Below, in pieces: positions 1 to 816 of a stretch of 64,000 nt of DNA. This DNA comes from Yuukianura sp. NJ FZ-2021. Taxonomy: Eukaryota. Position 1 is the first letter of the stretch; each line of letters starts with the position of its first letter. A model generated the notes under the pieces. It worked only from the letters and a program-made list of their open reading frames with translations, did no database searches and was not told the origin of the DNA. The stretch is from positions 682,001-746,000 of the forward strand of contig CM102286.1 in NCBI GenBank assembly GCA_046563655.1, read 5' to 3'. A program made the translations under genes and the position numbers.

Positions 1-816
1 TGAGTAAAGCACCTCAGAAATTGTCGTTAAATATTGCGATATGTCCGAGTTCGGAAGGCGGTAAAGTAGAAACACACCGTAGCCATCTTCCATAGTTTTA
101 GTAGCTAAGGGTAACGCCTCTTCTAACGTTGTCACCATGACATCCACTGCTCCCGGTCCAAGTTGTCTTTGCGTCAAATTAGGTACTTCAGGAACGATGA
201 ATTTTCCATACTCTCCGTTCCAGCTATAGTCCAAGAAGTCTCCAGCATTTAAATCTTCATAAGTTAATCGAGTCATCACTGGCCCATAGTAGTACAGCGA
301 TATAATTTTAGGTTCCGGAAGGAGTCGGCGCAGTTCCCGAACCAAGTAGACGAATGAAAACTCGTTGGCTGGTTTCGGCTTTCCGGTTTCGGTTTCTTCC
401 GGACCATAACCTGCGTATTCGTCATCAAAATCGATTCCATCCAGACCGTAGTCGTCTACAGTCTGCGCCAGTTGACTAGCAAAGTCACGGATGGATTCAA
501 TGGTCTGGAAGTTACAAATTCCTACGCCCTGATGATTACCGAGAATTGACAAAAGGACTTTGATGCCTTTGTCTTGTAAAGGTCGAATGTACGTCGCATG
601 TCCGCGGAGGACTGTCGTCACTTGTGTATTGAAGTGCAGAACAGCTCGGTCGTTGACCTGGTCATAGTTGATATTGGCGGCAAAAATGATTGCAATGTCA
701 ATCAGCTGTTTGGCAACTGGAGTCTGGAGTGTGTAGCAACCAACGTTCAAAAAGTTAGTGTCATTGACCTCCACATACATCACGGTCAACGGACACTTTT
801 TGACTATCGGCGCCAT
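1..816 (-). CDS. Endo-beta-N-acetylglucosaminidase H-like (GH18); intronless, 3' end runs off the window
   Basis: Hand translation from ATG at 816: MAPIVKKCPLTVMYVEVNDTNFLNVGCYTL...IAIIFAANINYD...YIRPLQDKGIKVLLSILGNHQG...YGLDGIDFDDEYAGY...KIISLYYYGP...DYSWN...EDGYGVFLLY. It is colinear with recalled mature Streptomyces Endo H. The GH18 catalytic DxxDxDxE motif (DGIDFDDE) lies at 418-441. Open for 272 codons; absent from the ORF track because there is no stop in the window. Confidence 0.93.
   Translation of the reverse strand, partial: MAPIVKKCPLTVMYVEVNDTNFLNVGCYTLQTPVAKQLIDIAIIFAANINYDQVNDRAVLHFNTQVTTVLRGHATYIRPLQDKGIKVLLSILGNHQGVGICNFQTIESIRDFASQLAQTVDDYGLDGIDFDDEYAGYGPEETETGKPKPANEFSFVYLVRELRRLLPEPKIISLYYYGPVMTRLTYEDLNAGDFLDYSWNGEYGKFIVPEVPNLTQRQLGPGAVDVMVTTLEEALPLATKTMEDGYGVFLLYRLPNSDISQYLTTISEVLYS

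Follow-up and report, generated by a model that had tools for sequence, protein, structure and literature searches.

An Endo H-type endoglycosidase gene in a springtail genome, very probably of Bacteroidota-like origin

Introduction

How does a gene for an endoglycosidase of bacterial type come to lie in the genome of an animal, and where would its product act? The question is raised by a stretch of 64,000 nucleotides from the springtail Yuukianura sp. NJ FZ-2021 (NCBI GenBank assembly GCA_046563655.1, contig CM102286.1, positions 682,001 to 746,000 of the forward strand), which was analysed at its full length and is called the window below. At its very edge the minus strand carries a long reading frame that resembles Endo H, an endo-beta-N-acetylglucosaminidase (ENGase) of family GH18. 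A preliminary description, made from the letters alone, had proposed a horizontally acquired deglycosylase that has lost secretion, or that has a signal exon out of sight, and that possibly acts on high-mannose glycans of fungal food.

That Collembola hold foreign carbohydrate enzymes is already known: of the 809 foreign genes counted in the Folsomia candida genome paper, 229 have CAZy domains (PMC5490193), and the NCBI pipeline has given the name 'Endo H-like' to the Folsomia homolog of the protein studied here. In the literature covered (open sources and two supplementary files of the Folsomia genome paper, with subscription journals outside the scope) the family is undescribed in springtails or in any animal. 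Our overall reading, which we hold to be likely, is one old transfer from Bacteroidota to springtails of a gene for an active, probably cytosolic Endo H-type ENGase that has been kept by purifying selection.

Results

The frame and its catalytic motif

The gene, its motif and the spacer ahead of it are placed as follows.

1..816, minus strand: coding sequence of an Endo H-type GH18 endo-beta-N-acetylglucosaminidase; ATG at 816-814, 272 codons, no intron, no signal peptide, 3' end beyond the window
418..441, minus strand: catalytic motif DGIDFDDE, residues 126-133; D131 and E133 align with D130 and E132 of Endo H
817..1025, minus strand: AT-rich spacer of 209 bp with a guanine-plus-cytosine (GC) content of 0.29, between the stop of the upstream gene and the ENGase ATG

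The 272-codon frame described earlier is indeed intronless and uninterrupted from the ATG at 816-814 through base 1, but it is not a complete protein: the window edge cuts its 3' end, where the frame exits open ('3open'), and relatives extend 30-70 residues further C-terminally, a part that in this gene would fall beyond base 1. The frame is absent from the list of complete open reading frames (ORFs) because it runs off this edge. Upstream, the stop-to-stop frame ends at 891, next to the in-frame TAA (894-892) that had been noticed before. Direct reading of the spacer also gives an AATAAA at 1011..1006, after the stop of the neighbouring arginase-family gene, and a candidate splice acceptor AG at 834..833, 17 nt ahead of the ENGase ATG.

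The protein begins with MAPIVKKCPLTVMYVEVN, its start being MAPIVKK. Residues 5-271 align with residues 5-263 of the Endo H chain 1edt_A, and since residue 5 falls on residue 5 on both sides, the window Met lies at the mature Endo H N-terminus, as had been claimed. The DGIDFDDE motif is intact (nt 441..418), and D126, G127, I128, D129, D131, D132 and E133 are invariant in a 30-sequence alignment.

Family assignment, fold and conservation

By every criterion that could be tested on its sequence, the ENGase belongs both to GH18 and to the Endo H family, and it is not a GH85 ENGase. Pfam PF00704 (Glyco_hydro_18) is matched at 38.4 bits (cut-off 29.6); at E <= 0.01 only PF00704 and PF23916 matched, with no GH85 family in Pfam among the hits. 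The NCBIfam equivalog NF045482 Endoglyc_H ('endo-beta-N-acetylglucosaminidase H') scores 339.7 bits against a curated cut-off of 300 (E = 9.6e-102), with ENGase residues 5-271 on profile positions 2-261 of 267, and two other NCBIfam models stay below their cut-offs (Endo F3, 16.4 against 450; ChiD, 26.4 against 750). Among solved structures the Streptomyces Endo H entries are best (1edt, E = 1.1e-68 over residues 5-271), followed by Endo F1 (1.3e-38) and then by Bacteroides endoglycosidases. The only animal entry among the 38 distinct structure matches is one insect group II chitinase, aligned over about 90 residues at E = 0.001. The NF045482 and 1edt matches bear out the earlier assignment of the gene to the bacterial Endo H type.

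An AlphaFold2 model built on the 30-sequence alignment has a mean predicted local distance difference test (pLDDT) score of 90.8 and alternates strands and helices. It superposes on Endo H entries with template-modelling (TM) scores of 0.91-0.94 and root-mean-square deviations of 1.3-1.6 A, at 46-47% identity. The invariant motif and this alternation fit the GH18 pattern, in which DxxDxDxE lies on strand 4 of a (beta/alpha)8 barrel, and the catalytic Asp130 and Glu132 of Endo H, whose roles we took from the titles of the mutant PDB entries 1c8x, 1c8y, 1c90-1c93 and 1c3f, are conserved as D131 and E133. The E-values, the NCBIfam score and the predicted fold together exclude chance as the source of the Endo H resemblance.

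Across 46 bacterial rows, 74 alignment columns are conserved to at least 95%; of these the window protein retains 70 and departs by F39I, A109I, A222G and S264T, while other members of its clade (see below) retain 66-74. A five-residue, lineage-specific insertion sits in the loop after the catalytic motif and coincides with the lowest confidence of the model (pLDDT 56-62 in the blocks covering 131-150, and below 50 at residues 137-141). Contigs from public runs were compared with the window. Of the best-supported differences listed, 18 fall inside the ENGase ORF; another 367, over the 8 kb compared, stand outside that listing. Fourteen of the 18 fall on third codon positions and 12 are synonymous; the six non-synonymous ones sit in four codons, namely 140 and 144, within the lineage-specific loop, and 210 and 217. 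The preponderance of third-position and synonymous variants indicates purifying selection on the frame, and the neighbouring host gene has a similar variant pattern.

Relatives and phylogeny

A word-indexed protein search returned 1625 relatives among 2423 candidates, and what follows on relatives rests on the best 120 of these 1625. The top ones, at 56-62% identity, are proteins of JGI/Logan contigs together with one named animal protein, the 'endo-beta-N-acetylglucosaminidase H-like' protein of Folsomia candida (XP_035704845.1 / OXA58688.1), which has 305 residues, is 62% identical and is encoded on a 15.5-Mb contig. The family is thus present in a related host species and, as shown below, in the same clade. 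Among these 120 Folsomia candida is the only named springtail and the only named eukaryote; all remaining names are Bacteroidota, with no fungal or insect name. In a cluster look-up of the ten closest proteins, the Folsomia cluster was likewise the only one to carry a name.

Fourteen proteins of the 120 (P0003-P0014, P0040 and P0042) are set apart by their termini: they are without the lipoprotein-type signal of the rest, and their 'CLxPWPP' segment leads into a tail that varies between them. The metagenome contigs L001, L002, L003 and L014 (GC 0.37-0.39) encode four of these proteins. On L002 and L014 the intronless ENGase ORF is surrounded by short scattered frames, which on L014 include, as read from their translations, short-chain-dehydrogenase-like and zinc-finger-like ones. 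All four contigs look eukaryotic.

A scan of bacterial and archaeal genomes, one per species, gave 522 relatives. The best 80 of these are all Bacteroidota by record title, at 51-58% identity, from Mucilaginibacter, Pedobacter, Chitinophaga, Chryseobacterium, Hymenobacter, Arachidicoccus, Niastella, Paraflavitalea, Olivibacter, Ilyomonas, Sinomicrobium and two metagenome-assembled genomes (MAGs) titled 'Bacteroidota bacterium'. Among the Protein Atlas clusters that have recorded taxa, those nearest are 99-100% bacterial. The preliminary description had named Streptomyces and Bacteroidetes as the typical bearers of such enzymes; the Bacteroidota are in fact nearest, but Streptomyces Endo H is further away, at about 46-47%.

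Two trees were built. A quick tree held 79 rows: the window protein, 14 eukaryote-side proteins, 24 genomic loci (at most three per genus from the 80), six bacterial proteins with a 'CLxxW' tail and 34 representatives chosen for coverage from 150 listed 50%-identity representatives. A careful maximum-likelihood tree of 64 rows and 312 columns, from which 18 long or compositionally odd representatives had been removed and to which three tail-bearing bacterial ORFs had been added, was rooted on three Endo F-like representatives. It unites all 15 eukaryote-side rows in a single clade (support 100/96), which recurs in 100% of 200 bootstrap trees and on which the quick tree agrees. Within the clade the window protein pairs with P0003 (99/94) and the Folsomia protein with P0005 (100/99). 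The clade emerges from a polytomy together with several groups, in which every named member belongs to the Bacteroidota, and high-GC, Actinobacteria-like representatives branch elsewhere, within one Bacteroidota-named group. The eukaryote-side sequences are therefore nested, in a supported tree, within those of the donor domain. A bacterial subgroup that includes an Ilyomonas MAG shares with the clade a 'GCY' Cys and a 'CLxxW(P)' C-terminus, which is a hint on the donor.

Integration beside a spliced gene

The window has a GC content of 0.375 and few long frames, and contains pieces of multi-exon genes for a RhoGEF, a protein kinase, a GFO/IDH/MocA oxidoreductase and a glycerol kinase. The best named relatives of the glycerol-kinase exon (159 residues, 59484-59960) are from two springtails, Folsomia candida (79%) and Orchesella dallaii (77%), ahead of those from a barnacle (70%) and a mayfly (67%). 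We take the source of the window to be a springtail without close kinship to Folsomia. This exon, nearest to Collembola, and the multi-exon genes agree with the earlier statement that the ENGase gene is embedded in an animal genome.

The gene next to it lies upstream on the same strand, its stop 209 bp from the ENGase ATG.

2018..2084, minus strand: exon 1 of an arginase-family (formimidoylglutamase-like) gene, with the ATG at 2084
1931..2017, minus strand: spliceosomal GT..AG intron of 87 nt in the arginase-family gene; the spliced N-terminus agrees with the homolog P0124
1026..1930, minus strand: exon 2 of the arginase-family gene, including the stop; PF00491 at E = 2.3e-43

The spliced N-terminus (MAASFVTRFGTDDPRLGN) agrees with that of P0124 (MASFSERFGTDDPRLGN), and the 87-nt intron at 2017..1931 substantiates the claim that intron-containing genes adjoin the ENGase. 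Against NCBIfam hutG the arginase-family protein scores 154.9 bits, under the cut-off of 229.

The junction between the 5' end of the ENGase gene and the 3' end of this neighbour is bridged by assembled contigs of public runs, namely record 25 of run X5 (287..1198) and record 18 of run X3 (563..1036). X5 carries a different organism code and comes from a different sample and study; it is the only independent run, and the runs that match the window best may be from its source sample. Contigs cover the ENGase ORF and its flanks in all four runs, although contig depth cannot rank genes. Linkage to an intron-bearing native gene is in this way confirmed apart from the assembly. As for the contiguity with flanking genes that the preliminary description had wished to see in long reads, the X5 and X3 contigs do span the junction, but they are short assembled contigs and not long reads.

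The arginase-family neighbour (1026..2084) has a distribution of its own. No arthropod is among its 120 best relatives; the closest are two metagenome proteins at 71-73%, followed at 48-58% by amoebae (Planoprotostelium, Balamuthia, Acanthamoeba), chytrids, Capsaspora, bdelloid rotifers and Hydra, and also by some Nitrospinota. It is either an old eukaryotic gene that has been kept only patchily or another foreign gene beside the ENGase. A tblastn search with it against 80 metagenome loci, most of them short or bacterial, gave no match.

The N-terminus and the tail

Signals were screened for as a 12-residue Kyte-Doolittle mean of at least 2.0 within the first 45 residues, which is a hydrophobicity screen and is not splice-aware. 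On this measure 100 of 106 bacterial relatives have a hydrophobic, lipoprotein-type N-terminus, whereas 13 of the 15 clade members give no sign of a signal peptide, in keeping with the proposed loss of the secretion signal. As had been observed of the visible frame, the window itself offers no signal peptide: the spacer 817..1025 is without an ATG-led hydrophobic frame in any of three frames, and the same simple screen found none in the 1.7 kb upstream part of L014. The start Met stands at an equal position in the window protein (MAPIVKK), the Folsomia protein (MPVIIRK) and P0005 (MAETRIIRK). The Folsomia protein has 305 residues and no signal in both the NCBI and the original annotation, and its N-terminus is short and polar.

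P0013 is the only clade member with a true signal-like N-terminus, and it starts inside the hydrophobic stretch. Its sister P0040 (L014, 1611..2552) reaches 2.0 only by way of a core strand; the L014 frame is open upstream of the called P0040 Met, and this upstream part aligns with the post-signal residues of P0013. The two may be a secreted paralog pair.

In a model of the Folsomia protein the strands at 33-35, after the 'GCY' Cys, and at 273-275, in the tail, are ordered; the tail is ordered to about residue 285, and residues 290-305 are disordered. Cys-rich C-termini follow the 'CLxPWPP' segment in P0003, P0004, P0006, P0009, P0014 and P0042 (...CPCCKQQ, ...CCCSCAQIK, ...GCGCACK), and these tails are possible candidate sites of lipidation.

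Other features of the window

An intronless Met-start ORF of 214 codons at 7343..7987 (plus strand, GC at third codon positions 0.51) is without a Pfam match at E <= 0.01. Related three-exon genes stand in two tandem pairs, at 2611..6292 (plus strand) and 49978..53663 (minus strand), and have short introns and hydrophobic, multi-pass-looking products; the exons tested have no Pfam match, and the pairs may be lineage-specific receptor-like families. A tandem array at 35928..36647 (35-bp unit, 20.6 copies, 93% matches) is open in several frames on both strands. At 5074..5607 and 6409..6675 the summed contig depth climbs in all four runs from a few hundred into the thousands or the hundreds of thousands, and loose ends and back-joints are numerous; these segments are repeats of high copy number or fragments of mobile elements. 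A tRNA-Ile (GAT)-like element at 60006..60077 (plus strand), found by ARAGORN and by Rfam (31.5 bits, gathering score 29; 60007..60076), directly follows the glycerol-kinase exon and is probably intronic. It is the only Rfam match over the window, with none near the ENGase.

Discussion

That a real, integrated Endo H-type gene is present in the springtail genome we regard as almost certain, and on the sequence comparisons made here its origin is very probably bacterial (Bacteroidota-like), by transfer. One eukaryote-side clade of 15 rows nested among bacterial sequences is the pattern expected for horizontal acquisition, and upholds what had been proposed. We envisage a single old transfer that would have brought a Bacteroidota-type lipoprotein gene into an ancestor common to at least Folsomia candida; vertical descent with some duplication within the clade would have followed, and the gene would have been retained under purifying selection since. 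The window and Folsomia proteins, which pair with P0003 and P0005, respectively, may be orthologs or old paralogs.

Several observations weigh against parts of this reading. Base composition was considered as a sign of foreign origin and rejected: the GC content of the ENGase ORF (0.456) and its GC at third codon positions (0.48) lie inside the range of host exons and also inside that of Bacteroidota genes, and so do not discriminate. The sister group of the clade is a polytomy, so that the donor is not placed below the level of phylum and any narrower assignment was rejected. Among its nearest relatives in the clade, the window protein stands at the end of the longest terminal branch (0.82, where the median is 0.30); we read this branch and the loop insertion as probable divergence and not decay. 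The subclade of P0013 and P0040 carries or hints at a signal peptide. Because the starts of the metagenome proteins are automatic gene calls, blind to upstream exons, the count of clade members without a signal rests mainly on the Folsomia protein, the window spacer and the common Met. The absence of a signal peptide in the window protein is itself read from genomic DNA, and an upstream signal exon is possible. Finally, the clade retains the 'GCY' Cys and the tail Cys that are common to its secreted bacterial relatives, and a conserved disulfide would suit a secreted protein better than a cytosolic one.

How else could the gene be explained? It might be a decaying or non-enzymatic relic, either out of selection or turned into a lectin-like binder, for which the long branch and the insertion in a low-confidence loop could be cited; yet all 272 codons seen are open, 70 of 74 conserved columns are retained along with the whole DxxDxDxE motif, the listed variants are mostly third-position and synonymous, and the equivalog cut-off of NCBIfam is passed, so that we find this very unlikely. 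Bacterial contamination or a chimeric join in the assembly has an even slimmer chance and is largely refuted. The gene does lie at the very edge of the window and is intronless, and its closest named relatives besides Folsomia, among the best 120, are bacteria. However, its junction with the spliced neighbour is bridged in contigs of two samples, one of them of another study and organism code, and the flanking spacer has a GC content of 0.29; the protein has no lipoprotein signal, unlike 100 of the 106 bacterial relatives, is at most 58% identical to any of the best 80 bacterial genome matches, and falls together with a protein encoded on a 15.5-Mb Folsomia contig and with proteins of low-GC, gene-poor, eukaryote-like contigs. 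Scarcely credible, in our view, is vertical inheritance from an ancient eukaryotic GH18 ENGase, with the Bacteroidota likeness put down to reverse transfer or slow evolution. The stem of the eukaryote-side clade is well supported, and filamentous fungi are reported to have cytosolic GH18 ENGases; but no eukaryote other than Folsomia is named in the best 120 of the 1625 relatives, bacteria make up 99-100% of the nearest Atlas clusters for which taxa are recorded, bacterial rows enclose the clade under the Endo F-like root, and the fungal Cordyceps enzymes (6kpl/6kpm) are distant, at E of about 1e-4 by sequence and TM 0.56-0.58 by fold. The preliminary description had held that grouping with a widespread, vertically inherited animal GH18 clade would tell against transfer: the protein does group with animal-side sequences, but these include one named animal, Folsomia candida, lie inside bacterial diversity and do not amount to a widespread clade of animal GH18 proteins.

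The site of action is a separate matter, on which the balance tips slightly towards the cytosol. Cytosolic action is inferred because there is no signal peptide, by analogy with the cytosolic GH18 ENGase of Neurospora. Through D131 and E133 the enzyme would still use the substrate-assisted mechanism of GH18 to cleave high-mannose and hybrid N-glycans in their chitobiose core, and a cytosolic enzyme would act on the N-glycans of misfolded glycoproteins or on free oligosaccharides. It is conceivable, and offered here tentatively, that in springtails a bacterial enzyme has been built into the cytosolic disposal of N-glycans: the Endo H-type ENGase, having no signal, would then carry out the deglycosylation step of endoplasmic-reticulum-associated degradation (ERAD) or of free-oligosaccharide turnover, maybe held at a membrane by S-acylation of the Cys-rich tail seen in several clade members, with the paralog lineage of P0013 and P0040 having re-acquired a signal peptide for secretion. 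This arrangement and the cytosolic GH18 ENGases of filamentous fungi would be a case of convergence. We consider it rather unlikely that the transferred gene has a secreted product which, for example in the gut, strips high-mannose glycans from dietary fungal or microbial glycoproteins, the signal peptide being on an unseen upstream exon or export being unconventional. Springtails do have many foreign carbohydrate enzymes (the 229 of 809 foreign Folsomia genes with CAZy domains; PMC5490193), a candidate acceptor AG lies at 834..833, 17 nt ahead of the ATG, P0013 has a hydrophobic N-terminus with which the upstream open frame of L014 aligns, and the cysteines of secreted bacterial relatives are kept. 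Against this stand a spacer without an ATG-led hydrophobic frame, beyond which lies a same-strand gene with its own AATAAA, a Met position common to a Folsomia protein annotated at 305 residues without a signal, and the 13 of 15 clade members without sign of one. The role in fungal-food digestion that had been suggested fits a signal-less copy poorly and is the less likely one.

A comparison with known enzymes sets out what the window ENGase shares with each. With Endo H of Streptomyces plicatus (1edt, 1c8x) it has in common the fold, 46-47% identity over about 264 residues, the Asp and Glu of DGxDFDDE and the length of the mature domain; it differs in lying in an animal genome, in having no secretion signal and in the five extra loop residues, and its clade relatives add a C-terminal 'CLxPWPP' segment and a disordered tail that are absent from Streptomyces Endo H. 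The closest bacterial proteins, at 51-58%, are Endo H-family lipoproteins of soil Bacteroidota (Mucilaginibacter, Pedobacter, Chitinophaga, Hymenobacter, Chryseobacterium), which belong by name to the same NCBIfam family and of which one subgroup has the 'GCY' Cys and 'CLxxW(P)' C-terminus of the springtail-side clade. The Bacteroidota proteins have a lipoprotein-type signal and many have a C-terminal domain of about 90 residues, whereas the springtail-side proteins are without both and form their own clade (100/96). The Folsomia candida protein resembles that of the window in its 62% identity, its clade, its polar N-terminus, its Met position and the absence of a signal peptide; it comes from another springtail lineage, pairs with P0005 and not with P0003, and owes its name to automatic annotation only.

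Among eukaryotic enzymes the likeness is one of role. A preprint on Neurospora gh18-10 describes a cytosolic GH18 ENGase that is active and tied to ERAD (bioRxiv 10.64898/2026.03.25.714127). With such filamentous-fungal enzymes (Neurospora gh18-10 and the Endo T type) the window protein shares GH18 membership, the lack of a signal peptide and a proposed cytosolic role; they are distant in sequence and fold (Cordyceps, TM 0.56-0.58), and the resemblance is in proposed role and not in descent. With the animal cytosolic ENGase of GH85 it would share the expected reaction class, EC 3.2.1.96, and a putative cytosolic site, while having no GH85 match at E <= 0.01. The insect ENGase, Drosophila CG5613, is described in PMC9933517 as a GH18-superfamily member, counted with the chitinases and present in 8 of 8 tabulated insects. 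It is a different, widespread protein, and no insect is among the best 120 of the 1625 relatives of the window protein.

In conclusion, the window ENGase apparently adds one more borrowed carbohydrate enzyme to the Collembola, and the family is present, unannotated, in eukaryote-like soil metagenome contigs as well. The foreign carbohydrate enzymes of springtails are usually read as digestive, directed against plant and fungal cell walls. Unlike those, this one is predicted to be an N-glycan-specific endoglycosidase, and its export signal seems to have been lost across most of an old clade; the predicted specificity together with the lost signal points to internal glycoprotein turnover over digestion. 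In practical terms, it may offer a eukaryote-adapted Endo H homolog that is made without secretion. If such an internal role is true, horizontal transfer can feed a housekeeping pathway of animals, with a core step of proteostasis carried out by an acquired enzyme, and Folsomia candida, being a laboratory model, would make this a tractable test case.

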